A stretch of 64,000 nucleotides of DNA. Origin: Mobula hypostoma (Eukaryota). The stretch is from positions 100,938,001 to 101,002,000 of the forward strand of contig NC_086107.1 of NCBI RefSeq assembly GCF_963921235.1. The letters are read 5' to 3'. Of the stretch, positions 9,463 to 62,030 are shown piece by piece (within the stretch, counting starts at the first letter, position 1; each line of letters starts with the position of its first letter). The notes beneath the pieces are model-generated. The model was not told the DNA's origin. It was given only the letters and a program-made list of their open reading frames with translations, and did no database searches. The position numbers were made by a program, and so were the translations under genes.

Positions 9463-10963
9463 AATAAATAAATAAATAACCCTGGCAGTGAAAGGGTTAA
9501 CATATGTGGAGGTTTTATGGTTCTGTGCCTGTTCTCACTGGAGTTTAGAAGAATGAAGGAGAACCTCATTAAAACCTACTGAATTATGAAAGGTCTAGAT
9601 AGAGTGGACATGGAGGAGATGTTTCCTATAACGGGGGAGTCTAGGACCAGAGGGCACAGCCTCCGAAAAGAAGGATGTCCCTTTAGAACAGAAATGAGGA
9701 GGAATTTCTTTAGCCAGAGTGTGGTGAAGCTGTGGAATTCATTACCACAGATAGCTATGGGGTCAAGTCATTGGGTATATTTCAAGTGGAGGTTGATAGG
9801 TTTTTGATTCGTCAGAGCATCAAAGGAGAAGGCAGAAGAATAGGTTGGAGAGGTATAATAAATCAGCCATGATGGGATGATGGAGCAGACTCAATGGTCC
9901 AAATAGCCTAATTTTGATCCTATTTCTTATGGTCTAAATAAGTATTGGAAGTACCTCAGTTTAAATGGAAGGTGTATCTATATGGAAGCTTTGCCACAAA
10001 TTGGTGAATGATTGGCCTTTAGTTGTAAGAGCCTTGTGTGCAAAGACCTTGCCTGGTGCCAGTTCATCTCCTGTTGGGTTTAGGCTTCAATACTGAACCT
10101 GCGGAAATAACCAAGTTGGTTGAACAAATACCTTAACATGAAGCCTTATCATGTTGATGCGCTTCATGTTGGATTGGTTTTGTAATGCTGGCCCTTTGGC
10201 AGCCATTAATTGTGTAAGCAATTACTCATTGAATAAAACACCAAGAGAGGTTCAGAACTGCATGTGCAATGTCAAGGTTAGGAGATGAAGACGAGAAGCA
10301 GTTACTGAAAAGGGAGGTTCACAGGAACAATTTCTCGCAGGGTGCAGTGAACCTCCAGAGTAGTCTCAGCCCCAGCAGGCTGCCGACACACACGACATTC
10401 TGCAGATGTTGGATCATCAGGGATGTTTACGGAGCAGATCAACTTCTTGAAAGGTCAGGTAATTGGAGGTTGTGTGGAACTGGCACAGGAGGAGTGATGG
10501 TCATCCCTGATCTTGGTGGAAGGTAGAGCTGGTTTGAGGGCTGGCGTGGCTACCCCTGCTCCTATTTTCTGATGTCCTGTGGCCTCCCTCAGTAACTGTA
10601 GCACCAAGGACTGAAGGATGCTCCACCAACCAATCAATACTCCTTCAATGGGGCAACTAGACCAGGTCAGTGACCAGGAGTGATGTCCAAGTTTACTGTG
10701 TCTAACGTGTGTATAGCTTGTGTTTGGGAGACTGTCGGGTTGGATCTTCCTGCTGAGGTGGGGATGCAGGCATCTTCCTGCCATGTGGGAACTCAGTTCA
10801 TAGCCACCTCTCTGTCCTCTGAACTGTTTAAGCGCCATGCTGTAAGCTGGGGGAGGAGCCGTACTGCCTCTATGATACAGTGAATATGCCAGCATGTATC
10901 ACAAGGATAATTGTGAAACAACATGTGACAACCAAGCCACAGAGGAGATTAAGTCAATTGCTG

Positions 10964-11181
10964 CAACACACACAAGATGCTGGAGGAACTCAGCTGGTCA
11001 AGCTGCATCTATGGAAAAGAGGATAGTCGATGTTTCAGGCCGAGACCCTTCAGCAGGACTGGGTCCGAAACGTTGACTGTTTACTCTTTTCCATAGATGC
11101 TACCTGGGCCTGCTGAGTTCCTCCAGCATTTAGTGTGTGTTGCTTGGATTTCCAGCATCTGTGGATTTTCTCTTGTTTGTG
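10964..11181. mobile_element. Penelope-terminus palindromic element
   Basis: Arms tgctggaggaactcagc...catctatggaaaagag and its reverse complement. Degenerate TSD attaagtcaattgctg / actaggtcaattactg. Confidence 0.75.
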
Positions 11182-18446: not shown

Positions 18447-18666
18447 CAAACACGAGAATTCCTGAAGATGCTGGGAATGTAGAGCAATTCATACAAAGTG
18501 CTGGAGGAACTCAGCAGGTCAGGCAGCATCTATGGAAAAGAGTAAACAGTTGATGTTTCAGTCCAAGTCCTGATGAAAGATCTCTGCCCGAGATGTTGAC
18601 TGTTTACTCTTTTCTATAGATTCTGCCTGGCCTGCTGAGTTCCTCCAGCATTTTGTGTTTGTTGCT
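18447..18666. mobile_element. Penelope-terminus palindromic element
   Basis: Same family. Degenerate TSD aagaatgagggttt / aagaacgagggctt; decayed hammerhead agtcCTGATGA...GAGAtgttgact. Confidence 0.75.
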
Positions 18667-22711: not shown

Positions 22712-23010
22712 AAGGCATCCGCTAGTCTCGTGAGACCATGGATTTGCGCCTTGGAAGGTTTCCAGGGCGCAGGCCTGGGCAAGGTTGTATGGAAGACTGG
22801 CAGTTGCCCATGCTGCAAGTCTCTCCTCTCCACGCCACTGATGTTGTCCAAGGGAAGGGCACTAGGACCGATACAGCTTGGCACCAGTGTCGTCGCAGAG
22901 CAATGTGTGATTCAGTGCCTTGCTCAAGGACACAACGCGCTGCCTCAGCTGAGGCTCGAACTAGCGACCTTCAGATCACTAGACCAACGCCTTAACCACT
23001 TGGCCACGTT
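22712..23010 (-). mobile_element. tRNA-derived SINE with CORE-like segment
   Basis: Head cgtggccaagtggttaaggcg...ctagttcgagcc and gtgtccttgagcaaggcac. Copies at ~6266-6460, 1455-1660, 40142-40345, 49889-50145 and 54818-55105. Confidence 0.75.
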
Positions 23011-24951
23011 AGTTAGGCATCAACATTATTGTTGCTGGCGGGATCTGGCTTTGTACTGGATGGATGTCTCAACACTCACCTTTGCAGCTTCAGAGTGATT
23101 GTACCTGGGCAGCTCGGTAGTGTAGCAGTTAGCACCAGCCGTAAGAACGATTCCCGCCACCGCCTGTGAGGAGCCCTGTGACTATGTGGGCTTCCCAGGC
23201 ACTCCAGTTGCCCCCTACATTCTGAAAGGCCCACGGTTTGGGTTCGTGAGCTGTAGGTGTGCCATGTTGGCACCAGGAGCAAATGACGCATTTTGACGTC
23301 GTGTGCCGAAGAAAGCTAACCTCTCGGGAAAATTTCGAATCGTCAGCTCAATGCAGCATGCGCATCTCTTTGGGAAGACTTGAGTTGTTAGTGGTGGGGT
23401 GGGGTGACCCCCTTTTGGGTCAGAAAGCTGTAGGGTAACTCTGGAGGTCTTCATGAACTGGTGAGGGTGGAGAAGGTGTTTCACGGTCAGAGATGACAAG
23501 GTGAGATCACCTCCATTGTACTGCTTGGAGATTGTTGAGGAAATGGGTATCACTATCACAAGGGAATGGTGAACGTTGCATTTTTAAATTTTAATTTTTA
23601 TTCCTATCTATCTACCTATCCTGTCTGTCTAACTCTCCTGTCTATCTATCTGTCTATACATCTCACCTATCTATCTTGTGTATCTCTCTTCCCTCTCCCC
23701 CCATCTTTTAAATCTACTCCTCAGCTTTTTTACTGCAGTCCTGCCGAAGGGTTTCAGCCCGAAACGTCGACTGTACTGTTTTCCATAGATGCTGCCTGGC
23801 CTGCTGAGTTCCTCCAGCATTTTGTGTGTGTTGCTTGGATTTCCATCACCTGCAGACTTCTCTTGTTTCTCCTATCTATCTATCCATCTCTCCAAGCTAT
23901 TCTATTGACATACAGCGTGGAGTAGATGCCTCAGGCCCATTGAGGCACACCGCCCTGATTTCACCCCGGCCTAATCACAGGATAGTTTACAATGACCAAT
24001 TAACCTACTGACCGGTGCGTCTTTGGACTGTGGGAGGAAACCGGAGCACCCGGAGGAAACCCACGCAGTTACGGGAAGAACGTACAAACTCCTTACAGGC
24101 AGCAGCGGGAATTGAACCTGGTTCGCTGGTACTGTAAAGCGTTGTGCTAACTAGTACACTACCGTGACGCCCCAAAGGAGTACTTTAAGGGTATGCTAAG
24201 TAAATTCAAGAAGTGGAGTGAGAATGGAGATGGAAAAGGATGAAGGGGCCATGGAGGATAAACACTGGCACAAATTGAATGGCCCAATTCTGTAATGTAC
24301 TGTTCACGTAATTCTGAGATATAATAATAACTTATTTACAGAGCAGTTTTCATACAGAGGATGTAGTGCAAAGTGCTTTACAGACTTGCAAATAAAATAT
24401 AAGTATGATAGTAAAAGAGAAAAAGATGTTAGTTAAAAGCAGCAGTTAAATAAATAGGTTTTGAGTTGGTGTTTAAAAGTGTCAATGGAGTCGGCAACCC
24501 TTATAGTTTTAGATATTGAATAATGTGTCTTTCTGTTAGTAACGAGACACATGAAGATGAACCGAGGAGATACGTGGAATAGAAGGAGCAATGTGGGTAC
24601 AGCATTATGCTTTCCTAGGGGATATTGACACACATATGAAATACATAAAGGTAAATTTACTAATCATATAAACTACTCAAAGAGTAACGCGCCATTACCT
24701 CAGTTCTCCTCCATCCTCAGACTGCAATCCCCCCCTTCCTCTGCCACCAAGCCCAATACTATTGGAGGATGGAGAGAGGATCCAGCACTGACAGAGACAC
24801 ACTCAAAGAACAAATGGGCAAATAGACGCCAGCAGGAAAAAGGGGATTAATCGTAGGGAATAGAATGAAAGAGGGAGGCAAGCTGACATTATTTTCTTCC
24901 CTTGGTATGCCTTTTGACCCAGAATGTTTAAAGTAAATGTTATTATCAAGA

Positions 24952-25450: not shown

Positions 25451-26951
25451 ATAGACAATCCTGAGATTCATTTACTCAGCAAATCTACAGAATAGTAACT
25501 GTAACAGGATCAATGAAAGATCGACCAGAGTGCAAAAGACAACAAACTGAGCAAATGCGAATATAAATAACGAGATCATGAGAAAACGAGGCAAAGAGTC
25601 TTTTTTTAAAATATAATTTTTATTGAGTTTTCTTCCCCCCCCCCCGATATATATCCCTACCAGAAAAAAAAAGAAAATAAAAGAAAGAAGAAAGAAGAAC
25701 TGCCTGGATATTGGAAGGTTTCCACATGCTCCATGGGATTCAAAATAAATTTAGTATATTTATTTATTACTTTCCCCAAGGGACCAACATCTTTATCATC
25801 AGAGCAACTAAATATGCCATCCTATCTTTTGTAAATAAGGGGGCCAAATATTCAAAAATGTATCATATTTATCTCTTAAATTATAAGTAATTTTTTCGAG
25901 TGGAATACAACTAGACATTTCATTGTTCCAACGATTCATACTTAAATATGAATCCGATTTCCAAGTAACTGCTATAGCCTTGTTGGCTACTGCCAATGCA
26001 ATTTTTATGAATTCTTTCTGATATTTATTCAGTTTAAGTTTCGGTTTTATCCCTTCAATATCACCTAATAGAAATAATACAGGGTTATGTGGAAGTTGAG
26101 TTCCAGTAACTTGTTCCAATAAGACTCTTAAATTTATCCAAAAAGGTTGAATTTTAGAACAAGACCAAGTAGAATGTAAGAAAGTACCAATTTCTTGATT
26201 ACATCGAAAGCATTGATCAGATAAGTTTAAATTTAATCTATTTATTTTTTGCAGCGTAATATATAATTGGTGTAAAAAATTATATTGTACTAATCTAAGT
26301 CGAACATTTATTGTATTTGTCATATTGTCAAAACATAGTCTTGACCAATTTGTTTCATCAATATTAATATTCAGATCCATTTCCCATTTTTGTTTTGACT
26401 TGTGGATTCCTTGTTTAATTGTCTGTTTTTGAATCAAATTATACATACAAGAAATAAATTTTTTTAATTTTTCCTTTTTGAATTAAAATTTCAATTTCAT
26501 TGGGTTTTGGCAAAAACATTGTTTGACCCAGTTTGCCTTTTAAGTAAGCCCTGAATTGGAGGTAACAAAAGAAAGTGTTATTTGATATTTGATATTTATT
26601 CTTTAGTTGCTCAAATGACATCAATATACCTTGTTCATAACAGTCTCCTATACATCTAATCCCTTTTTGGTACCAATTATATAAAAGTTGATTATCCATT
26701 GTAAAAGGAATAAGTCTGTTTTGGAACAAAGGTCTCCTTGCTCATAAAGATTTCTTTATTTCATTATCAACATTTATCTTATTCCATAGATCAATCAAAT
26801 GTTTTAATATAGGAGATTCTTTCTTTTCCCGTATCCATTTAGATTCCCATTTATATATCAAACCTTTGGGTGTATTTTCTCCTATCTTATCTAATTCTAT
26901 TCTAATCCATGCCAGTTTTCGATCATTGAAGAAATATGCAATAAATCTAAG

Positions 26952-27183
26952 CAACACACATCAAAGTTGCTGGTGAACGCAGCAGGCCAAGCAGCATCTC
27001 TAGGAAGAGGTGCAGTCGACGTTTCAGGCCGAGACCCTTCGTCAGGACTCTTCAGGAACGAAGGGTCTTGGCCTGAAACGTCGACTGCACCTCTTCCTAC
27101 AGATGCTGCCTGGCCTGCTGCGTTCACCAGCAACTTTGATGTGTGTTGCTTGAATTTCCAGCATCTGCAGAATTCCTGTTGTT
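26952..27183. mobile_element. Penelope-terminus-derived palindromic non-autonomous element with 15-bp TSD
   Basis: Near-perfect ~90-bp inverted arms plus an asymmetric tail. TSD tgcaataaatctaag at 26937-26951 and 27184-27198. Splits the L1 ORF2. Confidence 0.85.
27014..27049 (-). ncRNA. Putative minimal type I hammerhead ribozyme
   Basis: Minus strand reads agtc-CTGACGA-agggtctcggcct-GAAA-CG-TC-gact: both core boxes, a stem II hairpin, stem I agtc/gact, a GUC cleavage triplet and a minimal ACGU stem III. Confidence 0.6.
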
Positions 27184-28884
27184 TGCAATAAATCTAAGTT
27201 GATTTGCTTTCTAATAATTCTTAAAGTTTGGAAGTTGTAACCCTCCTAACTCAAATTTCCATGTCAATTTTTCCAATGATATTCTTGACATCTTACCTTT
27301 CCAAAGAAATTTTCTCACACATTTATTTAACTCTTGAAAAAATTTCTGTGGCAATTGTATTGGTAATGTTTGAAACAAATACTGTAATCTAGGAAATATA
27401 TTCATTTTTACAACATTGACTCTACCCACTAATGTTATTGGTAGTATCATCCATTTATCAAGATCTTCTTGAATTTTTTTCAATAGTGGTAAATAATTAA
27501 ATTTATATAAATTCTTTACATCATTATCAAGTCTTATACCTAAATACTTTATACCATTTACCAGCCATCTAAATTGGGTTGCTAATTGACATTGGCTATA
27601 GTCTCCTTTAGTAAGAGGTAAAATTTCACTTTTATCCCAATTTATTTTAAACCCTGATACTTTCCCATATTCATCCAATCTAGAAGGTAATTTATGTAAT
27701 GAATGCTGTGGGTTTGTTAAGTAAATCAAAACATCATCAGCAAATAGGTTAATTTTGTATTCCTCCTGATTAACTCTAAAACCCTTAATATCTGGATCAA
27801 TTCTAATTAGTTCTGCTAATGGTTCTATTGCCAATACAAATAAAGCAGGTGATAATGGACAACCTTGTCTAGTTGACCTTTTTAACTGGAATGGTGTGGA
27901 AATTTGACTATTTGTCACTACTTTAGCGTTAGGGTTAGTATTTAAAGTTTTAATCCAGTTTATAAAAGGTGTTCCTAACCCATATTTTTCTAATACTTTA
28001 AATACAAAATCCTATTCCAATCTATCAAATGCTTTTTCTGCATCCAAGGCTACTACTATACTCATCTCCTCCCTTTTTTGTGCCAAATGAATTATACTGA
28101 GTAGCCGAGTTACATTATCTGCCAATTGGCAAAGAGTCCTTAAGGTGAGATAATTGATCGTGGGAACATTTCAATGATGGGTCAAGTGAGTGTAGTCCTT
28201 TTATTCGAGAGCCTGACGGTTAAGGGGCAGCAACTGTTCTTGAACCTGGTGGTGTGAGTCCTGAGGCTCTTGCACCTTCCAAGCTGTTCCTTTATATTCC
28301 AACGCTGATGGAAAATACTGTACATGACTACATGCTGATTTATGTCCTTTACTCACCTCTGCTTGTGTGCTGCTCGCCAGCTTCATCACCCCGATTATGA
28401 TGTCACGGTGTCCTCACTGTAACCTGCAGCTCTGGCCTGAGTAGTCTCAGCAAGCTGCTTCTCAGCACCGTACCAGGTGGACACCACAATGGAGATTGCT
28501 CCGATTGTGAGACAGATACTACCAGGAGGGGATTACCAGGGCTGGTGGTGCCACTCACAGCTCGGTCAATGTTAGTGGCCAGAATCAGTCCTGGTCTCCG
28601 TACAGAATAGCTTAAGGTAAGTTCTAGATTCCTACGTTCATACTTCAAGGAAGGGGGGGATCATGTGTTTGGAGAGGGTGCTAGAGAATTCAGTGATGAG
28701 GAGAGACTTATTTTCCATAAAATAAGGATAGCTAAGGGGGAGCTTTGCCGGAGATATTTAAAGTTATGAGGTATGTTCATAGCATTGAAAGGTAGAAACT
28801 GTTTCCACTGGTAGGAGGACCAGGAACCAGGGGATTTAAGTTAAACTGGAGAAGGAATGAGGAGATCTTTTTATTACAGTGAGC

Positions 28885-36624: not shown

Positions 36625-39519
36625 TATGTTCTAAAGCATCCTGTCTGGTTACATCGTGGCATGGTATGGCAACCGTTCTGTTCAAGACTGCAAAAGGTTG
36701 TGGACATAGCTTAGCACATCATGGGCTCTTCAGTAAAGGAGCCTGCGGAGTCAAAGACCCCACCCACCCTGGACTGTCTCCCATCTCCCTTCTCCCTCTC
36801 CCAGCAGGCAATACATACAAAAGCCTGAAAGCACATACCACCAGGCTCAAGGACAGCTTCTGTCTCACTGTTGAACAGTCCCCAAGTATGATAAAATGGA
36901 TTCTTGATCTCACAATGTACCTTGTTATGGCCTTATACCTTATTGCCTGCCTGCATTGCACTTTCTGTCTTACTGTGACACTTTATTTTGCAATGTTACT
37001 ATATTCCCTTGTATTTCTTCAATATACTGATGTAATCAACTGGTATATAGTATTTAGATGTTATTCAAAATAATGATTTTTAACTGTATCTCAGTACCAG
37101 TGATAATAATAAACCAACTTACCTATCTTTTGGGTGGCAGGGTGGAGATTCGTTTCTGCCAAAGGAGGTGTAAGGTGCTCCTTTCCTCCACTAGTCTGCA
37201 GGTCACCCTCGGGCAAGGTGTAGCACCTGCTTAGTCCCTGATCAGGGCCACGTGAAGTCATGGGAGCAGGTAGCTGGTGGTCGTATGAGAAGCTGGTGCG
37301 TATCGCAAGTCCTGGTTATGCGACTTATGCGACTGACGCCAGGCAGGCAATCTCTGAAGAGCATTGATAATGGCTGGGGTCACTTGCCTTGTAAAGACAT
37401 TGCCCAGAAGAAGACAATGGCAAACCACTTCTGTAGAAAATTTGCCAAGCATAATAATGGTCATGGAAAGACCACGATTGCCCATGTCATATGACACGGT
37501 TCATAATGAATGAACAAACCTATCTCTGGGATGCTGGAGGAAACTGGAGTACTCAGGGAAAACGTGTGTGGTCACAAGGACGACATACAAACTCCACACA
37601 GAGAAGTGGAAGAGGTCAGGATTGAACTCAGGCTGTGGGGTAGTCGTTGCATTCTTAGATCTGGCCAAGGGGCTCCCTCAGCCTAGGGGCAATTTTCAGT
37701 AGTAAGAGCCTACTGGCTATACAGTATATCTTTGGGATGTAGGAAGAAACTGGAGCTCTGCTGACAACCCATGTGATCGCAGAACGTGCAGGTTTCACAC
37801 AGACAGCAGTGAACCTGGGTGGCTACAGTTGTGAGCTAGCAGCTCTACCAGCTCTGTTACTCTGCTGCATTGGAACTGGATAACATTTTGCAAAGGTGCA
37901 GTGCTATGTTAACAGAAAAAGCAAGGCAGTGGGATAATTGGATCACTCTTCCTGAATGCTAACACAGGGACACTTGGGACTACTCAAATATTATTCACTG
38001 GTTGGAGCAAAATATTACAAAATGGCAGATAGACCAAGTAAGCCAAATAGAGTTCAATATAAGGAATTGTGAGATGGTTCACTTTGGTGCCAAGGAAGAT
38101 ATTTTCCAGTGTGGTATTGTGAACCATCAAAGGAAGAAAGATATTTAGGAATCCAAGGACAGATTCAATGAAAATTGTCTCACTAAGAAAAAGACTGTTA
38201 GAATATGAGCTTTTATCTTGAGAAGTTTGGAATACAAATAATGTCACGGATGTCCAGAGCTTTGGTTAAGGTAACTGGATGTTTTGTATTTACTTCTAGA
38301 CACCAGTTCACAGGTAGGAAAAGTCTTCACCAATATCAGGCCATGGATAGGTTGTATGAATTTGGCAATGAGAAGATTGGAGAATGGGCTAAAGTAACAG
38401 CAGTGGGATACAATGAATTAATATACAGGGCATCTACTTTCTGTGGTAGGACAAGTTTAAAGCAGAAGAACTACAAACACAAAAAAATTCTGCAGATGCT
38501 AGAAATCCCAAGCAAAATGCTAGAGGAACTCAGTAGGTCCATAAGACCATCAGACAAAGGAACAGAATTAGGCCATTCAGCCCATCGAATCTGCTCCGCC
38601 ATTCCATCATGGCTGATCCCGGATCCCACTCCGCCCCGTACACTTGCCTTCTTGCCATATCCTTTGATGCCCCGACTGATCAGGAAGATATCAATTTCCG
38701 CCTTAAATATACCCATGGTCTTGACCTCCACCGCAGTCTGTGGCAGAGCATTCCACAGATTTACTACTGTCTGGCTGAAAAAGTTCCTCCTTACTTCTGT
38801 TCTAAAAGGTCACCCCACAATTCTGAGGCTGTGCCCTCGAGTTCTGGATACCCCCACTACTATTGGAAAAATCCTCTCCACATCCATCCATCTCGTCCTT
38901 TCGACATTTGGTAAGTTTCAATGAGATCTCTTCCCCCCTCCCCACCTTCTTCTAAGTTCCAGTGAGTACAAACCCAAAGCTGCCAAATGCTCCTCATTTT
39001 TAACCCCTTCATTCCCAGAATCATCCTTGTGAACCTCCTCTGGACTCTCTCCAATGACCACACATCCCTTCTGAGATATGGGGCCCAAAACTGTAAAGGT
39101 CAGGCAGCATCTATGGAGAAGAGTAACCAGTCAACGTTTTGGGATTGATGAAGGGTCTCGACCTGAAACGTTGACTGTTTACTCTTTCCATAGATGCTGC
39201 CTGACCTGCTGAGTTCCTCCAGCATTTTGTGTGAGCCACAATGTAATTAGATATTGCACCTTTGCATGAAGAGTTGCATAGTCTAAAACTCCTTTTCCTC
39301 AAAAGGCCAGTTAAGTTTTCATTCTCAGTTGGATAGCGTTTTGGGAGCTCATGGTGCCAGTGTTGTGCACCAAAAGCATTGAGGGAGAGATTAACTGGTG
39401 GAACTGGGTGATGAAATGGATTCTGCCGCGTTTCTCCAGCATTTTGTGTGCGCGTTGCTGAAGAAGGGCTGAATGGTTTCCTCCTGTGGCTGTGATTGAT
39501 CTTGGCTTTTGCTTTGAAG

Positions 39520-42052: not shown

Positions 42053-44872
42053 GTTGGAACGATTGTAACATCTGTCCCCCGCGATTTATGTGCCAGGCAA
42101 CTGGTCAGCCAGGGGTCCATAGATCCCTTGCTTAAATGGTATTGGTCCATGGCACTCTTTGATTTAGACCAAAGAGTGGCCTTATTGTGGTGTCTAAATC
42201 ATTAGAAGTGGTTAAAAGAAGAGGGAGGGTTCATTTGTGGGAAGTTAAAAACCAGTTGTAAATCTGAGACAGACATTAATAGACAGCAAATATTGCTTCG
42301 CTGTTCCAAAATAGCGCAAGGATGTGCCAGGCAGAGACGGTTTAATATCAGCGGTGGGAACGTATTTAGGGATTATGGTCAGAGAAAAATTTGGCAAAGT
42401 TGTAGAGAATGAAAGCGAGGCAGCACATAATGGCTGAAGGGGAATCGTGAGTGATGAAATGTTATGGTAAGGCTGATGAAGAGAATGGAGTGGATGCTGC
42501 CTATAAATTTTCAAGGGGTGTTTGATAAAGCACCACCTCAGCAGGCTAGTTAGCAAAGCTGCAGGTCAGATTAAAGTTTCAGAAGCAATATGGATGAGGA
42601 ACCACCCCAGTGCAGAAAGCAGCGGTGGGTTAACGTTAAACAGGGTAAAGCGTGCAGACGCTGGAGATCCAAAGCAATGCACACAACATGCTGGAGGAAC
42701 TCAGCAAGCCAGGCAGCATCTATGGAAATGAATAGACAGTCAACGTTTCGGGCCAAGACCCTTGTTCAGGACCGATCAGGAAGGGGGAAGGGGCCAGAAT
42801 AAAAAGGTGGGGGGAGGGGAAGGAGGCTTGCTGGAAGGTGTTTGGGGGGAAAGGTAAAGGGCTGGAGAAGGAGGAATTGATAGGAGAGGAGAGTGGACCA
42901 TTGGAGAAAGGGAATGAGGAGGGGACTCGGGGAAGTGATGGGCAGGTGAGAGGTGGTGAAAGGCCGGAATGGGGAAAAGTAGAAGAAGTTAATGAGTTTC
43001 AGACTGGAAGTGGGGTGCTTCAAGGATACACTTAATATTAATGGCTTAGACTGCAGCTGAAGGGCGAAACTTCCAAATCTACAGCTGACAAGATTTGGAA
43101 GTACGGTAACCAGCGAGGAGAGTTGTAAAAGCATGAGAGAAGATGTAGATAGGCAGACTGAATTGGTAAACGTGGCCCATGAGAGTTAATGTAGCTGGAT
43201 AAACTGATAGAGTTTGACACTGAGAATAAGGAGAGACACTGCAGTTTAAGCGGTGCCATTGTAGAGGTTGCACCAAACAAAGGGAACTGGGTAAATGGGT
43301 AGAACACAGTGAGTGAGCAGGTGGTTCAGGAAATGGGGCCCTAGGCTCCAGAAGCAAACTGGGAGGGTATGAATGGCATTCTGACTGGATGCATCAGCAT
43401 CGTATGGGGGGGGGGGGTGCTGCTACTGCACAAGTTTGAAATAAGTTGCAGAAACTTATAAAATTGTTCAGCTCCATCATGAGTACTATCCTCCCTAGTA
43501 TCCAGGACATCTTCCAGGAGCGGTGCCTTAGGAAGGCAGCGTCCATCATTGAGGACTCCCACCATCCAGGGCATACACCGCTTCTGATTGTTACTGTCGG
43601 GAAGGAGGTACAGGAGCCTGAAGGCACACACTCAGTGATTCAGGAACAGCTTCTTCCCCTCTGCCATCAGATTTCTGAATGGACATTGAACCCACAAACA
43701 CTACCTCACTACTATTTTTTATTTCTGCTTTTTTCACTGCTTATTTTGGCAACGATTTTATATATATAAAAAATTCTGATTCTGATTCCGATTAGGCGAC
43801 AATTGGAGTATCATGTCCTAGTGGTAAGACTGTGGATTTGGGTACAGAGAAGACTTGCTTGAATGGTTCTCAGAATGAAAATTTCCTTTCCAGGTTTGGT
43901 TGGGGAAGCTGGAGGCAAAGCTTTGAGATATCAGGCAATGGGAAATCAAGGAAAATGTTAACTTGGGATGTACTTATGATTTGGAATTCAATGCTTGTTG
44001 TTAATTCAAAATGATGTTACGAGCGCTATTTGCAGGGCTGAAGAAGAGTGGGACTAACAGGGTTGTTTTATCTTGAGCTGGCATAGACTAGATGGGCCAA
44101 AAGCCCTCCTCCGAGAATCACAGAGAAATGCACGATTCAGGTCCTTCAGTTCTATGAGTCTTTGACGAATACAGTACCCAGCCAGCTCGTCCCAATTTTC
44201 TGCATTTGGCCCATATCCCCCCAAGCCTCTCACCCCTCCATGTACCCGTGCAAGTGTTTCTTAAATCATTCTATTGTACCTGCCTCAACCCCCTCCTCTG
44301 GCAACTCGTTCCATATCCTCACCCCCCCCCCAGTGTGAAGAAGTTGTTGTTCCTGCGCTTTAACACAGGGACTATTACTGATGCCCTATGCTACAACATT
44401 TGTTTGATACTCTGTGGATTCAGAGAAGTGTCTTCGCCCCAGCATGGAAGGAATGTGTGATCCCCTCCTCTCCTCCCTCCCGATGGAGTCATATCACTCG
44501 GAGATATTTGAAGGACATCTAGGTAAGGCAGCAGAGTGCGATATTTTTCAGACAGTGTTGGACACAGTAGCTTTGAGGAAGGCATGTGTGGTGCAGTGGA
44601 CCCGTTGGGCAGAAGGTATTCCTTCTGTCCCTCAGAAGTTGGAGTGCCAGGTGCTTTTCTAGATAGAGCTCCAAGGGGTCCTCCACCATCATTTGCACTG
44701 CCCCTTCCCCCAGTACCCTCCCTCCTGGTGCCTGCACAGACACCGGTTGGTAACAGGATGGGGTGGATAGGTGGGGGCTCCTTGCTTGCTAATTTTGGGG
44801 CAGTTGGGCCTTGCGAGGTATGTAGAGATGAGGGAATCATGGAGCACTGGTGTTTATAAACTGGACTGGGTC

Positions 44873-45090: not shown

Positions 45091-46348
45091 TCATCTCTTC
45101 ATGGTTGGATGTTGAGACAACATGGGCTTGGTGTTAAAATTGCATTGCAGCATTAATAACCTCAGTGGGCTCACTGGGCATCTTAAATCACCCCCGTCTA
45201 TAGGGAGCCATGAATTATTGCTGTAAATGTTACGACAAGTGGCTACATTCCAAGATGGAATCTTTATTTCATCGTTTTGGTTTTAATCTCTCCCCCAGTT
45301 CTCTGCAGCCTGTTAGGGGAGGGTTTAATCTGATAGTGACAGCTATCCAGAGGAAACTGGTTTTGCCACCAGCAAGAACATGTGTTGTCAGTGCAGAGTA
45401 ACAGAAGTAAAAAGCTCGCCATTTAACAAAATACACAAATCTGTGAGGCGTGGAGAGTCCCAGTTCTCAGTTCCTGCTATGGCTGACCAGAGCTTGTAGA
45501 AAGGGACAATTCATCCCCTTGACGGAATGCTGGCTGTTCATACAAATTCCCACTGGGTGTGACTTCTGAATCCCTATCCACCACCATTTGCACACTACAT
45601 GACAATCTCTCATCTACCTTTTGTTTTGTTTGCCAACTAGAATCAGAATCAGGTTTAATATCACCGGCGTGTGTCATGAAGTTTGCTGTCTTGCAGCAGT
45701 AATACATTGCAATACGTGGCAATAAAAGCTATTAATTACAATGAAAAGCATATATAAAAATAATTAGAATTGCAACAAGAGAGAGAAGAAGAAATAGTGA
45801 GGTAGTGTTTATAGGTTCATTGTCCATTCAGAAACCTGATGGCGGAGAGGAAGAGGCTGTTCCTGAAACACTGTGAGTGGAGCCTTCGGGCTCCTGTATC
45901 TCCTCCTTGATGGTAGCAATGAGACTAGGGCATGTCTGTGGTGATGGGGGCGGGGGGCGTCTTTCATGATAGGTGCTGCCTTTTTGAGGCATTGCCATGT
46001 GAAGATGTCCTCAATGCTGGGGAGGCTGGTGCCCATGATACCAGTGGCTGAATTTACAACTTCCTGCAGCTTTCTCCTAGATCCTGTCTAGTTCTGCGCC
46101 ACCCCCACCCCCACATACCAGACGGCGATGCAGCCAGTTCTCCTTAGAGTCCTGCTGAAAGGCCTCAGCCTGAGATGTCAACCAGTCCTGCCGAAGGTCG
46201 CAGCCCAAATCGGTGACTGTACTTTTTTTCCGTGATGCTGCCTGGCCTGCTGAGTTCCTCCAGCATTTTCTGTGTGTTGTTTGGATTTCTGACACCTGCA
46301 GATTTTCTCTTGTTAGTTCTCCTTAAGTTTATTTGCTTTTCTTTAGAT

Positions 46349-48127: not shown

Positions 48128-49269
48128 CTTTAGATAGTTTATCGTGATTATTCTATAAAATCCATTTATAATTTTGTTCGGTTCTATTATACATTCCTTT
48201 AGCCGTCTGTGCTCCAAGCAGAGTGCTACAAATTCCCCTAATCTCTCTATCGTTAAGCCACCGATCTGGCAAATCTCCTCTGCACTCTCCAAGAGTTGCT
48301 GAAGTGTGGGGATCAGAACTGGATCCATTGCTGATCTGAGAGATGCACACGGAAATCCGATATACCTTCCTTGTATTATACCCTGTTTATAAAGCTAAGG
48401 ATTCTGCCTTTTTCCTTTAACCAGCTTTTCCAATGTGTCATTCGGAAAATATGATTTAAAAAAAAATCTGTCTCTGACTGTCTCCCACAAACAAGTGGGA
48501 TTTATTCCACCCAGGAAAACAGCTGAGGCTGAAGAAATTAAGTAGTATAAAAATGAGCTGTGTGTTTAATTGGAAGGAGATTAGATGTCACAGAAACCAG
48601 GACAGAATGAGCTGGTTGTAATGACCCAGAATGTCTCGTGGTGTGCCTAATGAGATGGATTTTTTTTTGTATTTCAACTCAAATTCTTTTTTGTTTCCCT
48701 TACAACTTCCTGGATATGTGGGCGCCACGGCAGCGTAGCAACTAGCGTTACAGCTGGGGACGTTCCTGAGTTCAGGGTTCAATTCCAGCACTAGCTGTAA
48801 GAAGTTTGTACATTCTCCCCATGAGCTGCATGGATTTCCTCCTGGTGCTCTGGTTTCCTCCCAAAGACCAGTTAGGTTAATCGATCATTGTAAACTGTCC
48901 TGTGATTAGGCCAATTAAACAGGTGGGCTGCTGGGCAGTGCAAATCATTGAGTTGGAAGGGCCTCTCTGAATAAATACTAAATTAAAGACAAATTTTAAA
49001 ACCCTCAACGAGGGCAATGGATTCTCGATGTGATCAGAGTCGTATACAACACGGAAAAGGGCCGTTCAGTCCGCTGACCATCAACCACCCATTTACACAA
49101 ATCCTATACTATTTACATTATTTATCCTCTCACATTGTTATCAACTCTTCCCAGATTCTACCACTCACACTAGGAGTAGTTTAGAGCAGCCAGTTAACCT
49201 ACAGAGCTACACACGCAAAATGCTGGAGGAATTCAGCAGGCCAGGCCACCTCTGTGGAAAAGAGTTGAC

Positions 49270-49305
49270 AGTCGACGTTTCGGGCCGAGACCCTTCCTCA
49301 GGACC
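49270..49305 (-). ncRNA. Putative minimal type I hammerhead ribozyme
   Basis: Minus strand reads ggtc-CTGAGGA-agggtctcggccc-GAAA-CG-TC-gact. Lies in a palindromic element (~49209-49467) inserted in a V-SINE. Confidence 0.6.
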
Positions 49306-52300
49306 TGGAGAAGGACTCAGCCTGACGATGTCCTGATGGAGGATCTCAGCTCGAAACGTCGACTGTTTACTCTTTTCCATGGATGCTGCCTGGCCTGCTG
49401 AGCTCCTCCAGCATTTTGTGTGTGTTGCTCAGATTTCCAGCACCTGCAGATTTTCTCTTTGATTGTGAACCTACCAAGCTGCACATCTTTGGGATGTGGC
49501 AGGAAACGGAGAGAAACCCACAGAATTCAGAGAGTGGTGAGTGCATGGAATGGGCTGCCGGCAGCGGTGGTGGAGGCAGATATGATAGGGTCTTTTAAGA
49601 GATTTTTAGATAGGTACATGGAGCTTAGTAAAATAGAGGGCTATAGGTAAGCCTGGTAATTTCTAAGGTAGGGACATGTTCGGCACAATTCTGTGGGCCA
49701 AAGGGCCTGTATTGTGCTGTAGGTTTTCTCTGTTTCTATTAGAATCTACCTCACCGTAAGAGATAGGAGCAGATTAGGCCATTCAGCCCATCGAGTCTGC
49801 TCCACCATTTCATCATGGCCGATCCATTTCCTTCTCAGCCCCAATCTTCTGCCTTCTCCCTGTATCCCTTCCTGCCCTGACTAATCAAGTGGCCAAGTGG
49901 TTAAGGCGTCGGTCTAGTGAGCTGAAGGTCACTAGTTCAAGCCTTGTGTTGTGTCCTTGAGCAAGGCACTTAACCACACATTGCTGTGCGATGACACCAG
50001 TGCCAAGCTGTATGGGTCCTAGTGCCCTTACCTTGGGCAATATTGGTGGTGTGGAGACGGGAGACTTGCAGCATGGGCAACTGCCGGTCTTCCATACAAC
50101 CTCGTCCAGGCCTCAGTCATCATCGAAAATCGATGGACAGCTGAAGAATCAGGAATCTATCAGCCTCTGCCTTTCATCTACCAGTGAGAGTAGTGGAGTG
50201 AATGTGACAAAGCTGGGGTGGATTCAAGGAAAAGGATGGATTCTGGGAGAGGAGGATTAAATATGAAATAGTGTCTGAAATACAAATACAAAATTGCTGA
50301 AACAGGCCAGGCAGCATCTGTGGAGAATTCAAAGTTCAAAGTAAATTTATTAAAGTATATATATGTTATCGTATACTATCTTAAGATTCATCTTCTTGTA
50401 GGCATTTACAGGAAAATAAAGATGTGCAATAGTGAAAAGTTTTGAAACTTAGGAAACTTATGTGCAATAGTGAAAAGTTATGAAAAGTTATACATAAACA
50501 AAGACTAACAAACAACTAATGTGCTTCAGAAGACAAATAGTACAAAGAAAAAATACTGAGAACATGTTGTAAAAGAGACTGTGAAAGTGAGTCTGTAGGT
50601 TGTAGAATCAGTTCAGAGTTGTGTCGATTGATGTTATCCACTTTGGTTCAGGAGCCTGACGGTTGTAGGGTAATAACTGTTCCTGAATCTGATTGTGTGG
50701 CTCCTGTATCTCCTGCCCAATGGTGGTAGTGGGGAGAGGGCATGACCTGGATGATTGGGGGTCCTTGATGATAGATGCTGCTTTCTTATAGAGTGCTTGA
50801 TGTGAGAGAGAAGGAGAGCGGATGTTTCAGTTCAAAGATTTCTTTATCAGAGCAACAAGGGAAGGGAAGCAAAGGGAGAGAGGAGCAGGGATTTTCATGA
50901 GGTGGCACCAAGTCAAAAGTAATTGAAAAGCATAAGAACATTGAAAATGTTAAATGAAGTAGGAAATACTGGAAACACTCAACAGGTCAGGCAGCGTTCG
51001 TGGAGAGAGTAACAAAGCTAATATTTCAAGTCATTGACTTTCCCTGATAGGGGAAGCACTGCTTCATTGACGAAGCACTGCTGGGCACGTTATTCACTAC
51101 TGTCCCAGACATTCAGGTCACTGACTCCTGTTCTCCCTCTACAGATCCTGCCTGACCTCCTGCAGCAGTTTTGTTTGTTCTTCTGCATGTGACGGTCTCT
51201 CCCTCCCTCTCGCTCGCTGCTCTCCAGGAAGGTCCTTGCATTCGAATGATCTCTCTGGAGAATGGGGCCGGAGCAAGGTTTAATTGCCACAGTTTGTAGA
51301 CTTGGACTCTAATTCAGGTTTATAAAGTGTTCTAGTTCTGGTCACTCCGTTGCTTCTACTGGGTGGTTTTTGAATCGGGACAGACTGCAGATAATGAACA
51401 CTGAGCTGAACTGAACTAAAATATGCCTTTGATTTTGTGTTTTATACTCAGTGTTTTCACTTGTTTTTTATGTTGCTTTTTGCACGTGGCAGGAGGGGGG
51501 AGTTGATGTTTTTTACGTTAAGTGGTTGATTCGTGGTTCTTTGTTTCGTGGCTGTCTGTGGAGAAGACGAATTTCAGGGCTGCTTTGATAATAAATGCAC
51601 TTTGAATCTTGCAGATTTCCAGCATCTGCAATTTCGTTGTTTTTCAAATATAATTTTAAAAATGGTCATTGCACGCAGGAACTCCATCATTATAATCGTC
51701 CACTTTCTGAATAAGAGAAAACTACTCATTAATAGCGTTATAAACGGTCAGACTTAATGTTTGTTGTGAGTTTACTGTGCAATTAATGTACTGACGCAGC
51801 AACTTCACGACACTCATGTGGAGGTGAATTCACAATACTGCTTAGACGGTTTGTGATCGAGACAGGAAGAATTGGACTGGTTTGTTACTATTATAGGTAA
51901 AAAGCTTTTGCTTTAAACATAAGAAATAGGAGCAGGAGTCGGCCACCTGGCCCATTGAGCCTTCTCCGCCATTCAAATAGATCATGGTTGATCTGACCAT
52001 GGACTTATCTCCAGCTACCTGCCTTTTCCCCGTAACCATTAATTCCCTACCTATGCAAAAATCTATCCAACCTTGTCAAAACTCTATCCAACTTTGCCTT
52101 GAGATAGTCTCCACTGGTTCATTGGGCAGAGAAATTCCACAGATTGTCCACTCTTTGGGAAAAGCGGTTCCTCCTCATCTCCGTCCTAAATTGACTCCCC
52201 CAAATCTTGAGGCCATGTCCCCTAGACAGACAGATTGTTGCATACATAGTTACATTGAGGTAGTGAAGAGAAACCTCCAAGAGGGTTACAACCTTGTCGT

Positions 52301-54408: not shown

Positions 54409-54600
54409 CAAACAAGAGAAAATCTGCAGGTGCTGGAAATCCAAACAACATACACAAAATGCTGAAGGAACTCAGCAGGCCAGGCAGCATCTATGGAAAA
54501 AAGTACAATTGATTTCAGGGTCTCGGCTCGAAACATGGACTGTACTTTTTTCCAAAGATGCTGCCTGGCCTGCTGAGTTCCTCCAGCATCTTGCGTGTGT
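54409..54600. mobile_element. Penelope-terminus palindromic element
   Basis: Same family; degenerate TSD tccccatactctgattac / tccccatacgctgactgc. Confidence 0.75.
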
Positions 54601-55339
54601 TCCCCATACGCTGACTGCCTTGTCCTCTGTGGTCTGTTCTTCATGGCAGAAAGACGGATGGCAGCAAGGAGCAGAGGCATCTCTTTGCAAACTGAATCTT
54701 TGTTGTCATGCTCCAAGAAGCGGCTGAAAGTGTGAAAGAAGGCACAGTAGGCCATGGACCAAGTGCTGGTATGCAGGTTGTCCCGGGGTTACAAACGTCC
54801 AACATAGGAACAAGTGTGGCGCGTGGCCAAGTGGTTAAGGCGCTAGACTAGCGATCTGAAGGTTGTGGGTTCGAGCCCCAGCCGAGGCAGTGTGTTGTGT
54901 CCTTGAGCAAGGCACTTAACCAAATACTGCTCCAGTCCACCCAGTTGAAAATGGGGACCGGCAAAAATGCTGGGGGTTAACCTCGCGATAGACTGGCGTC
55001 CTATCCGGGGGCGGGGGAGTCTCGTACTCTCAGTAGCTTTACGCCACAGAAACCGGCATAAGCACCAGCCTGATGAGCCTATAAGGCTCGGGACAGACTT
55101 TAACATAGGAACAGCTCCCATGATCTTGTTAAACTCAAAAGTCCAATGTACAGATTTTGTGAACAGCAGAACTAATTTCTTCTTCTGCAAAACAGAAAAT
55201 GCTGGAGGAACTCTGAAGGTCAGGCAGCATCTAGAACGTAGAACGTTACAGCATAGTACAAACCCTACAGCTCACAATGCTGTGCTGACCTTTCAAGATA
55301 CTGTAAGATTGATCTTTCAACCAACTCTAAAAAGAACAA

Positions 55340-56730
55340 CTGCATTGGTGCTGCTTCATGCACCCGTGCTGAGCTCGTTAATTTAATCAATTTTGCCTCC
55401 AGCTTTCACCCTGCCCTTAAGTTCACTTGGCCATTTCTGACATATCTCCCCCTTTTTTGATCTCTCTGTCTCTGGGGACAAACTGTCTACCAATTGCTTT
55501 TATAAACCTACCAACTCTCACGGCTATCTCGACTATACTTTTTTCCATCCTGTCACCTGTAATAATAATGTCATTTCCCTTTTCTCGGTTCCTTTGTTTC
55601 CACCAAATCTATTCTCAGGATGAGGCTTTCCTTTCCAGAACACCAGAGATCTCTTCCTTCTTCAAAGAATGGGGTTTCCCTTCCTCCACCATTGATGCTG
55701 CCTGTACCCGCATCTGCCCTCACCCCATCTAGCCACCGTCCTAACAGGGGTAGAGTTCCTTTTGTCCTTACCTATCAACCCACGTGCTTCCGCATCCAAA
55801 CACATCATCCTCTACAACTTCCACCATTTTCAATGGGTTCCTACCACCAATACATCTTACTCCTCCCCACCCCCAACTCTCTGCTTTCTGCAGGGAGTGT
55901 GCCCTCTGTGATTCCCTTGTCCATTCGACTTTCCCTACTCATCTCCCTCCTGGCACTTAGCCCTGCAAATGGAAAAAGTGCTACACCAGCCCATTCACCT
56001 CCTCCCTCGCCACCATTCAGGGCTCCAAACAGTCCTTCCAGGTGAGGCAGCACTTCACCTACAGACCTGTTGGGGTCGTCTACTGTATACAGTGCTCCTG
56101 ACAAAGCCTGCTCTGCATTGGTGAGATCCGGAGAGATTGGGGGACCACTTCGCTCTATCCACGACAAGCAGGGTTTCCCGGTGGCCAAACGTTTTAATTC
56201 CAGTCCCCACTCCCATTCTGCCGTGTCAGTTCATGGCCTTCTCTACGGCCACAATGAGGCCATCCTCAGGTTGGAGGAGCAACACCTCATATTCCACCTG
56301 GGTGGCCTCCAACCTGGTGGCATGGACATCAACTTCTCTAACTTCCGGTAACTCTTTCCCTCCCCCTTCCCTCCTCTTCTATTCCCCGCTGTGGCTCCCT
56401 GCTTCCCTCTTCTTACCTGCCTAACACCTCTCTCTGATGTCCTCCCTCTCCTTTCTCCTGTGGTCTACTACCCTCTCCTACCAGATTCTCCAGCCCTTTG
56501 CCTTTTCCACCAATCACCTCCCAGCTCCTCACTTCATCCACCCAGCTGGCATCAGATACCATCTTTAGCTTGTGCTCCTTCCCCTCTTCCCACCACCTTA
56601 TTCTGGATTCTGCCCCCTTCCTTTCCTGTGCTGATGAGGGCTGTTAGCCCAAAACGTCAACAGTTTATTCCTTTCCGTGGATGTTACCTGACCTGAGTTC
56701 CTCCTGCACTTTTGTATGTGTTACTCAGAA
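55340..56730 (+). mobile_element. Penelope-like retroelement 3' remnant (RT C-terminus, GIY-YIG endonuclease, terminal region)
   Basis: Frameshifted peptides FASSFHPALKFT, FYKPTNSHGYLDY, FQVRQHFT..VGVVYCIQCS and RLEEQHLIFHLGGLQPGGMDINFSNFR*. Followed by a pyrimidine-rich tract and a degenerate hammerhead motif at 56631-56658. Confidence 0.85.
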
Positions 56731-60755: not shown

Positions 60756-62030
60756 GTTAGTGGCTGTTCCTGTTTTTTTTAATGTTTCAACGTTTATCTC
60801 CTTGATATTTTCTGAACAGCTGAGATGACAGACAATTCCTGACGTTGGTTAAGTTAAAAATCAATCTCCAAAAGTTATGGGTTTTGACTGCAAAGAGGGT
60901 GCATGAAAACCAGCAGAGGGAAGAAAAGAACTCCCAAAGGTATTCTATAAATACTTAAATGGAAAAGGGATTAAAAAAGGAAAGAGTAGTTTCTTCTGGA
61001 GGCAAACTATCAACCTGGGTATTGATATTGATTTATTATTGTCACGTTTACTGAAATGCAGTGAAATTCGTTTGCAACACACAAAATATGACTGTAAGAT
61101 ATAGAAACAGAATTAGGCCGTTTGGCCCATTGAGTCTGCTCCGCCATTTCATCATGGCTGATCCATTTTCCTCTCAGGCCCAATCGCGTGCCTTCTCCCC
61201 ATACCCTTCCATGCTCTGACTAGTCAAGAACCCCATCAACCTTTGCTTCAAATATACCCAATGACTTGGGCCTCCACATCTGCCTGAGGCAATGAATTCC
61301 ACAGATTCACCATTCTCTGGCTAATGAAATTCCTTCTCATCTCCGTTCTAAAAGGATGCCCCACTATTCTGAGGCTGTGTATGCTGGTGGAACTCAGCAG
61401 GTCAGGCAACATCTATGGAAGGGAATAAACAGTCGACGTTTTGGGCCGAGATCCTTAAACAGGACTTCCTACTGTAAATGTTGCCTGATCTGCTGAGTTC
61501 CTCCAGCACTTTGTGTGTTGCTCTGGATTTCATGCATCTGCAGAATCTCTTGTGTTTGCAGGAGTCTTTTGTCTGGGTGCCATCCAGACATCACTCCATC
61601 CATACGTACATTTTTAAAACATCAGAATTCAGTGTTATAGTTATAGAGAAAGAGCAGTGCAGGTAGACAGATAAAGTGCTGGGGTCTCAATGAGGTAGAT
61701 TGGGAGATCAAGACTTCCATCTTTTAGTCTGTACAGTGGGATAGAAGCTGTCCTCGAGCCTGATGGTACGTGCTCTCGGGCTTTTATATCTTCTGGCCAG
61801 TGGCAGAGGGAAGAAGAGAGAATGGCCAGGGTGGGAGAATTTCTTGACTACGTTGCAGTGGAAGATGTGGACAGAGTGAATGAAAGGGAGGCCGGTTTGT
61901 GTAACGGACTGGGCTGCGTTCACAGTTCTCTGCAATTTCTTGCGGTTACGGGCAGAGCAGTTGTCCCAAGTGGAAGATAGGTCTGGCTCTCCACAAATAC
62001 TTCCCATTTGTTTGCACAAATTAAGAAAAT

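Follow-up and report, generated by a model that had tools for sequence, protein, structure and literature searches.

The 64-kb window analysed here, that is, the whole stretch of 64,000 nucleotides, contains an L1-type ORF2 that is split by a 232-bp insertion at positions 26952-27183 (Table 1). The insertion has no protein-coding capacity and is flanked by an exact 15-bp direct repeat. A sequence-only reading of this DNA had taken the repeat for a target duplication (TSD), and its score of 15 was indeed above all null sites, with maxima of 10.5 in 583 random sites and 8 in 108 mismatched flank pairs. When the insertion and one TSD copy were excised in silico, the ORF2 frame became continuous again, bar one nearby stop, with Pfam RVT_1 on one side of the insertion and zf-RVT on the other. 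These results support the earlier proposal that the element was inserted after the L1.

The two inverted arms of the element are 93% complementary over 107 nt and differ at 3 positions in their 91-nt overlap. The palindrome is asymmetric, as a tail of about 35 nt is present on the right arm only. The 8-nt filler found at the junction between the arms is rare among contigs of two related organisms. We conclude with near certainty that the insertion consists of two truncated ends of a Penelope-like retrotransposon (PLE), placed head to head between 15-bp target duplications.

Table 1. Features of the insertion, its host, the PLE relic and the other copies in the 64-kb window. Arm starts (tail-less; tailed) are positions in the family unit.
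Feature	Position	Strand	Remarks
Inverted pair (141; 161)	10963..11178	.	TSD 14/17
Inverted pair (142; 161)	18448..18666	.	TSD 12/14; possibly the same centre as at 10963
Single sense 5'-truncated PLE end with 3'UTR and tail	23635..23868	+	No palindrome; TSD-like repeat 14/15
Host L1-type ORF2 (RT and zinc-finger regions)	25808..28011	-	Split by the insertion
TSD, left copy, 15 bp	26937..26951	.	Last 3 nt also match element sequence just past the tail-less end; 10/15 positions match overall
Tail-less arm, Penelope pLTR end	26952..27049	-	From hammerhead stem I first base (unit 142) to internal end (unit ~241)
Predicted minimal type I hammerhead motif	27014..27049	-	4-bp stem I, CUGACGA, one extra A, 4-bp stem II, GAAA-CG-UC; cleavage predicted between 27018 and 27017
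8-nt filler at head-to-head junction	27050..27057	.	From sequence, resembles a second short hammerhead-start copy, minus strand
Tailed arm, same pLTR end	27058..27183	+	Begins inside the hammerhead (unit ~149-151, without CUGA box), extends through the tail
One-sided tail, ~35 nt	27149..27183	+	Family sequence continues to 27184-27186, overlapping first 3 nt of right TSD
TSD, right copy, 15 bp	27184..27198	.	Exact
Inverted pair (147; 163)	38485..39235	.	Split by later insertion ~38540-39096; TSD not found
Single sense 5'-truncated PLE end with 3'UTR	42638..42896	-	
Direct tandem (unit 142-176, then 141-275)	46147..46314	+	No palindrome; exact 11-bp TSD
Inverted pair (143; 143 preceded by 28-nt direct repeat of hammerhead core, ending at GUC cut site)	49205..49459	.	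TSD 16/20; minus-arm core intact
Inverted pair (153; 163-181)	54410..54601	.	TSD 13/14
Decayed Penelope-like ORF relic	55335..56351	+	RT C-terminal region and GIY-YIG endonuclease with CCHH-type motif
Relic 3'UTR and hammerhead-bearing pLTR end	56489..56725	+	Ends at tail-less site (unit 242)
Inverted pair (142; about 186-193)	61074..61557	.	Split by later insertion ~61095-61380; TSD doubtful

The same hammerhead-bearing unit is found at 56627-56725, 3' of the relic of a PLE open reading frame. A 67-aa piece of this relic (56148-56348) retrieved 80 proteins by full phmmer (best E 2.7e-17), and a word-indexed protein search with the PLE C-terminal piece gave no match. Two of the homologues, P0002 and P0007, tiled 55335-56348 in tblastn searches (E 3e-50 and 2e-69), and GIY-YIG matches, below the Pfam cut-off, were obtained in two of the seven homologues scanned (E 0.002 and 0.001). 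The relic belongs to an older subfamily, to whose arms the 26952 copy is about 76-78% identical. The family therefore combines the hallmarks of PLE insertions: a unit linked to an ORF with RT and C-terminal GIY-YIG, a head-to-head truncated inverted copy, a 30-40 bp tail at one end and a TSD. With 27 profile matches at E<1e-3 in 64 kb, the earlier view of a Penelope-derived, high-copy, non-coding element was borne out; an affiliation with Poseidon is at present a lead only. A 24-nt family motif had no match in viral, metagenome or prokaryote genome contigs.

Six further copies had been described as having the same architecture. All six carry TSD-like repeats that beat a random null (10963, 18447, 23640, 46147, 49205 and 54410; p<=0.005), the one at 23640 being less secure as a TSD since it sits in a TCTA-type repeat, and four of the six are inverted pairs; the 23640 copy, however, is a single end and the 46147 copy a direct tandem. 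Two more regions, at about 38480-39235 and 61075-61555, proved to be inverted pairs as claimed, but both are split by later insertions and neither has a convincing TSD against random sites (p 0.30 and 0.027, respectively). Our junction and TSD census thus covers seven inverted copies within the 64-kb window, five of them with a TSD above null, and TSD length varies between 11 and 20 aligned bases. Rfam miRNA models also score these stubs, below threshold.

We then considered the hammerhead motif on the minus strand of the tail-less arm. The core boxes and stems that had been read there are present (27049-27014), but the pair at 10.1-11.1 is G-U, whereas the window consensus and the copy at 49305 have G10.1-C11.1. 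Like the metazoan PLE minimal type I hammerheads described in the available text of PMC4209133, the motif has the core boxes, a short helix I, an extra nucleotide before 10.1 and a palindromic 15.2-16.2 without helix III; it differs in the G-U pair of the 26952 copy, in a helix II of 4 bp rather than the 7-8 bp of Schistosoma, and in an A6C change present in four arms. In Schistosoma, according to the same text, dual hammerhead motifs occur on opposite strands at distances of 100-700 bp. In the element studied here the CUGA box is missing from the plus arm, and only the minus arm has a complete core, which contradicts the suggestion of two opposed ribozyme-containing termini. Moreover, the Rfam hammerhead models that had been suggested as a check gave no match to the element at gathering score or E<=10. 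Among 19 aligned arms, the core is intact in two (27049 and 49305, both on the minus strand), mutated in nine and left incomplete by truncation or gap in eight, so that it is mutated in 9 of the 11 arms that span it without a gap.

The folding energy of the 36-nt motif was no better than that of shuffles (z -0.37) and is therefore not evidence for a ribozyme. In folding predictions, the whole-element transcript forms a hairpin, and the pairing probability of the four hammerhead stem pairs tested is 0.0 in it, as compared with 0.57-0.69 in the arm alone. The hammerhead is likely a passenger, which the full hairpin would bury. We also looked for junctions at the predicted cut site and found no arm starting at unit 174 among the seven inverted copies. 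Two internal direct duplications were available: the one in the 49205 copy ends at the hammerhead cut site, with a 3-nt microhomology, and the other ends at 176. Cores are damaged in the short direct duplications at 46147 and 49310, and a TRF listing contained no direct tandem array of hammerhead units.

The seven inverted copies have six or seven different centres, depending on whether the 10963 and 18447 copies, which may share one junction, are counted as one; a subfamily amplified as a unit would also give a shared junction, and private variants common to the arms of these two copies were absent from the top matches listed. Outer ends are far more regular, with tail-less arms ending at unit 234-242 and tailed arms at 272-276. 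The ORF-bearing relic also terminates at unit 242, and therefore 242 is an end in its own right. On the inner side, the tail-less arm usually begins at the first base of hammerhead stem I, and the tailed arm stops short of it at variable places (Table 1). The tail-less arm reaches further 5' in six of seven copies, with one tie (sign test p 0.03 with the tie excluded and 0.125 with the tie counted against), and base 141, just upstream of the proposed start, is included in one copy. The junctions between the arms show a microhomology of 0-4 nt or a short filler. The start at unit 142 was read against the initiator and TATA consensus, and in four long copies it is preceded, at a distance of about 33-24 nt, by an A/T run within C/T-rich sequence. 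At the tail-less end, primer-template similarity was seen in two of five copies, with 7-8 of 10 primer positions matching. Extra variants common to both arms of a copy were seen in only two of six pairs (26952 and 61381), so a one-RNA origin is not evident for the older copies.

Contigs of the two related organisms contained 456 distinct joints, some of them common to both organisms. In all 15 joints listed of the 456, the left side falls at 27037-27049 (27045-27049 in 11 of 15) and the right side is scattered over 27101-27162, the positions near 27101 and 27140 being due in part to the point at which alignment of the older subfamily begins; the sequence between the two sides is not known for 12 of these 15. 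The reference used for the joints ends at unit 142, so that loose ends there are not evidence. None of the 15 joins sequence in a way that skips the element, and in some the second arm is reduced to the tail (to 27151-27162). Depth in these contigs, which is not copy number, was about 400-4,500 at the centre of the 26952 copy vs about 1e7 on the arms.

As an element, the insertion is ordinary: its minimal hammerhead, inverted pLTR, tail and TSD have all been described for Penelope elements before. The accessible parts of PMC8557442 describe PLE insertions in which a 5'-truncated copy is inverted and one end bears a tail of 30-40 bp, and those of PMC3846280 describe head-to-head pLTRs with a 31-bp tail and 8-10 bp TSDs in Adineta PLEs, somewhat shorter than the TSDs of 11-17 bp here; both sources state that the formation of inverted PLE ends is unresolved. 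The insertions studied here share with EN+ PLE insertions (PMC3846280, PMC8557442, PMC8969392) the 5' truncation, the inverted head-to-head copy, the 30-40 bp one-end tail, the TSD, a variable junction and the link to RT and GIY-YIG, but differ in consisting of two pLTR ends only, without an ORF, and in an apparently very high copy number. The Anolis Poseidon PAc, as far as the available text of PMC11167929 describes it, likewise has two ends about 35 nt apart downstream of the hammerhead, the PLE tail being the interval between two RT start sites; both strands were nicked and extended in vitro, and the PAc hammerhead was dispensable for insertion. PAc initiated without homology in vitro, in contrast to the primer matches in two of five copies here, and its ORF starts within its hammerhead, whereas no such frame was established in our family; inverted products are not a subject of that text. 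The asymmetry of the arms, with the tail-less arm at an initiator-like site and the tailed arm short and variable, is possibly the one new point. We found no literature description of this family or of cartilaginous-fish Poseidon/Penelope hammerheads in our search, outside which lie Repbase/Dfam and subscription journals, where the family may be catalogued; judged by titles and abstract starts, there was also no treatment of PLE inversion by twin priming.

We propose that the element was probably assembled at the insertion site by two target-primed reverse transcriptions of a parent RNA. That the palindrome is made anew at each insertion is very probable, and it is likely that both primings took place on sense RNA. 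Each arm is a copy of the hammerhead-bearing pLTR end found also 3' of the RT/GIY-YIG relic. By analogy with the Anolis Poseidon biochemistry, the PLE protein would nick both strands about 11-17 bp apart and prime cDNA from each nick, and one priming at the tail end with the other about 35 nt further in would leave the one-sided tail and the TSD. A single RNA would serve as template for both reverse transcriptions, over the same 5' segment, with the leading one running off the RNA 5' end at the initiator-like A and the trailing one stalling behind it, and the two cDNA ends would be joined through microhomology or filler, giving a product that is likely dead on arrival. A tail-less arm at the first base of stem I together with a short tailed arm fits such twin priming on one RNA, and we put forward the detail of a single RNA with run-off at its start site tentatively. 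The full proposal is a shade more doubtful still: mini-palindromes might be a record of twin priming on a single PLE RNA with the hammerhead first base as its 5' end, the inner-site RT running off, the tail-site RT stalling, and primer-RNA pairing sometimes helping. In L1 twin priming, too, primings from the two nicks produce a 5' inversion with a microhomology joint; L1 arms, however, have no overlap and the second priming site varies, whereas in our copies the overlap of the arms is almost complete and neither start site varies. A simple fold-back of tail-primed cDNA was rejected, as it predicts a tailed arm longer at the 5' side and six of seven copies show the reverse; a splice acceptor at unit 143 (pyrimidine tract and CAG) was likewise rejected, as no common upstream exon precedes the arms.

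In the accessible text of PMC3846280, head-to-head pLTRs are interpreted as products of antisense self-priming: an antisense transcript with its end near the outer edge of the hammerhead would fold back and prime its own reverse transcription, and the hairpin would be inserted. This predicts the variable centres, the short junction microhomologies and the observed polarity, the arm reaching 142 being the template and the other starting further in. However, the 3' end of the antisense RNA would always have to lie at unit 142, and we see no reason for this in the present data. Nor does self-priming account for the agreement of both outer ends with the two start sites on sense RNA that delimit the tail, or for a plain sense copy ending at 242; joints with the second arm as tail only also speak against it. 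We consider it rather unlikely as the origin of these copies.

Less probable again is the idea, favoured in the sequence-only reading, of a retrozyme-like, non-autonomous palindromic family transcribed and re-inserted as a unit of about 230 nt by means of its hammerheads. The density of profile matches, the similar overall size, the TSDs, the possible common centre of two copies and the joints found in both related organisms are compatible with it, and PLE-derived non-autonomous elements exist. Amplification as a unit does not agree, however, with the number of centres and of distinct joints, with two non-palindromes among the six listed copies and units that also occur singly, in tandem or behind a PLE ORF, or with at most one complete core per element, buried in the predicted full transcript. 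Non-LTR retrozymes (PMC7229834; bioRxiv 10.64898/2026.07.22.740005) are also short, non-coding, PLE-related and equipped with a type I hammerhead, but the available text of these sources defines them by direct tandem units, each with a hammerhead, and by circular monomers, whereas the element here is inverted and no direct tandem of intact cores was found. A short, non-coding, near-perfect palindrome with a TSD could also be a MITE-like or foldback DNA transposon with a chance hammerhead-like motif; yet its termini are not mutual inverted repeats, owing to the one-sided tail, TSD length varies, and the unit is also found singly and 3' of a PLE ORF. The ORF link largely refutes this last reading, which we regard as extremely improbable.

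Stubs of this kind are easily mis-annotated as MITEs, microRNA hairpins or retrozymes, and yet many tiny copies with four exactly readable end positions are material with which to test how PLEs copy themselves. A census of copies would separate twin priming from antisense self-priming and would reveal any trace of the hammerhead cut site in insertions. If true, twin priming on a single RNA would explain the inverted pLTR, the one-sided tail and the TSD in one step, replacing the published antisense self-priming, and the mini-palindromes of rays would be a natural read-out for it.

The element at 26952-27183 is flanked by exact 15-bp direct repeats. In a scan allowing a slack of 8 nt per end, this pair scored 15, against maxima of 10.5 at 583 random sites and 8 among 108 mismatched flank pairs, confirming the target-site duplication (TSD) proposed by the sequence-only reading. 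Removing the element and one repeat left a single unbroken L1-type ORF2 frame over the site, bar one nearby stop, with an RVT_1 match on one side of the insertion site and a zf-RVT match on the other. The restored frame makes the insertion younger than the L1 copy, as had been claimed. The description as a near-perfect palindrome holds for the arms, which differ at 3 of 91 positions, but not for the whole element, which is asymmetric, with about 35 additional bases on the right arm. We conclude that this is a real, young and well-preserved insertion of a known kind. At 10 of its 15 positions the target site (26937-26951) matches the element sequence past the tail-less end, a level equalled by 6 of the 4,370 15-mers in the host L1.

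Searching the window with a profile of 19 of its arms, whose seed copies match by construction, gave 29 matches (27 at E<1e-3), and four of these continue upstream into a C/T-rich 3'UTR. This 3'UTR is preceded by a decayed ORF. The final 67 residues of that ORF matched 80 proteins (best E 2.7e-17), and two homologous proteins tiled the relic in tblastn. A weak GIY-YIG match, below cut-off, was seen in two of seven homologues scanned, and the six looked up are annotated as host or uncharacterised genes of stingrays and a skate, which makes a ray the likely host. These matches identify the unit as the pLTR end, with its hammerhead motif, of a Penelope-like element (PLE) that carries an endonuclease, bearing out the proposed Penelope derivation. 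By its roughly 76-78% identity to the other arms, the 26952 copy is assigned to a younger subfamily than the ORF-bearing relic. Ray and skate gene models P0001-P0004, P0007 and P0034 (an ATP synthase subunit, mucin-2, a neuromedin-U receptor and a RecQ5 isoform among them) contain a PLE endonuclease C-terminus; these are likely exonised or mis-annotated PLE fragments absorbed into the models.

Copies of the unit and the ORF-bearing relic. In unit coordinates, the first base of stem I is 142, the predicted cut follows 173 and the tail end is at about 276; for 26952, 49205 and 61074 the arm starts were adjusted by eye because the automatic split had entered filler or divergent sequence.
Feature	Position	Arm starts (tail-less/tailed)	Remark
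Inverted copy	10963	141/161	
Inverted copy	18447	142/161	
Inverted copy	26952	142/149-151	8-nt filler
Inverted copy	38485-39235	147/163	
Inverted copy	49205	143/143	28-nt core duplication before tailed-arm start
Inverted copy	54410	153/163-181	
Inverted copy	61074-61557	142/about 186-193	
Single sense end	23640		no palindrome
Direct tandem	46147		no palindrome
Decayed ORF	55335-56351		precedes C/T-rich 3'UTR

TSD-like repeats exceeded the null at five of the seven inverted copies, and at 23640 and 46147. All six extra copies listed earlier have such repeats, less securely at 23640, but only four share the inverted architecture. The two further copies, split by later insertions, are inverted pairs, but their TSD-like repeats failed the null. 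The inserts (38540-39096, 61095-61380) belong to another dispersed repeat family, also present at 9482-9935 and 63332-63859. Outer ends lie at unit 234-242 in tail-less arms and 272-276 in tailed arms; 242 is likewise where the relic ends. Directly next to the left TSD of the 18447 copy lies a 23-bp minisatellite (16807-18429, about 70 copies). Elsewhere, a tRNA-derived SINE-like family (54822-54884, 49890-49947, 6262-6412, 22867-23009, 40138-40259) shows several 83-92% copies and two Rfam tRNA matches barely over the gathering score, and a 312-aa open frame (46856-47794, minus), without a Pfam match at E 0.1, resembles by eye a hAT-type transposase fragment.

The minus strand at 27049-27014 carries a 4-bp stem I, CUGACGA, an unpaired A, a 4-bp stem II and GAAA-CG-UC, without helix III. 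This predicted motif fits the minimal hammerhead of metazoan PLEs described in PMC4209133, with an extra base before 10.1 and a palindromic 15.2-16.2 pair. The claim that it is intact stands for core boxes and stems; however, a G-U replaces the G10.1-C11.1 that PLE hammerheads conserve, and no Rfam hammerhead model matched. The plus arm, which begins within the motif, has no CUGA box, leaving a single core rather than two opposed ribozyme-bearing termini. Across the 19 aligned arms, cores are intact in 2, mutated in 9 and partly missing in 8. In four arms (11061, 23737, 46147, 46183) C replaces A6 of the CUGANGA box, which suggests a subfamily that spread with a changed core. Short direct duplications of the core occur at 46147-46314 and 49310-49345, one stopping at the GUC cut site with 3-nt microhomology and the other 3 nt past the cut; either jumping of reverse transcriptase (RT) to the end of a cleaved RNA or ordinary slippage at microhomology could account for them.

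Contigs of two related organisms, A and B (67,255 and 102,084 records), were aligned to 26760-27400 and yielded 456 distinct joints; two raw-read runs gave no alignment there. The 15 listed have left sides at 27037-27049 (11 at 27045-27049) and right sides at 27101-27162, although 12 were flagged as possibly having letters between the sides and some right-hand positions are where the older subfamily starts aligning. Joints with 1-6 intervening letters, at 27091, 27104, 27109, 27137, 27140 and 27162, are real, distinct centres. Contig depth, which does not equal copy number, was about 400-4,500 at 27052-27057, whereas the arms reached about 1e7. The tail ends at 27184-27186, as marked by loose ends whose flanks are AT-rich and unrelated, and so extends over the TSD's first 3 bases.

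Non-LTR retrozymes consist of units repeated in direct tandem, each with its own hammerhead, and yield circular monomers (PMC7229834; PMC11722881; bioRxiv 10.64898/2026.07.22.740005). In contrast, the 26952 element is inverted, and its one core is buried: the whole transcript is predicted to form one hairpin (-191.6 kcal/mol), in which four tested hammerhead stem pairs have pairing probability 0.0 versus 0.57-0.69 in the arm alone. With no fixed centre among copies either, the proposed retrozyme-like parasite is not upheld. Judged on the window copies, a subfamily amplified as a unit may still exist, since 10963 and 18447 may have one common junction; those of the other five inverted copies all differ. 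PLE insertions are described as including an inverted copy truncated at its 5' end, together with a one-sided tail of 30-40 bp (PMC8557442; PMC8969392), and pLTRs arranged head to head with a 31-bp tail and TSDs of 8-10 bp (PMC3846280). For the Anolis Poseidon protein, PMC11167929 reports that both strands are nicked and extended, that RT begins at two internal sites bounding the tail, and that hammerhead cleavage is not required. The simplest reading of the palindrome is two primings, each nick priming at one of the two RT start sites, after which the two cDNA ends are joined. Antisense RNA self-priming, the published alternative, may also produce inverted arms and predicts the same arm polarity. 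Neither a description of this ray family nor a twin-priming account of PLE inversion was found in the literature searched, which lay outside Repbase, Dfam and most subscription journals.

The tail-less arm extends further 5' in six of the seven inverted copies and ties in the seventh (p 0.03 with the tie omitted, 0.125 with it counted against). Its start falls at unit 141-143 in five of seven, and both units of the 46147 tandem also begin there. The base at unit 142 is an A within a TCAGTC-like sequence; in four long copies it is preceded, about 33-24 nt upstream, by an A/T run. These positions resemble those of an initiator and a TATA box. Because of these features, and because PMC2377424 describes an internal Inr/DPE promoter in D. 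virilis Penelope, we tentatively raise the possibility that one RNA serves as template for both RTs over its 5' segment, with the leading RT reaching the RNA start and the trailing RT stalling. At the tail-less end, two copies have primer-template matches at 7 (p 0.005) and 8 (p 0.0006) of 10 bases and three have them at 3-4 of 10, so primer pairing would be occasional at most. The 26952 element offers one testable mechanistic lead.
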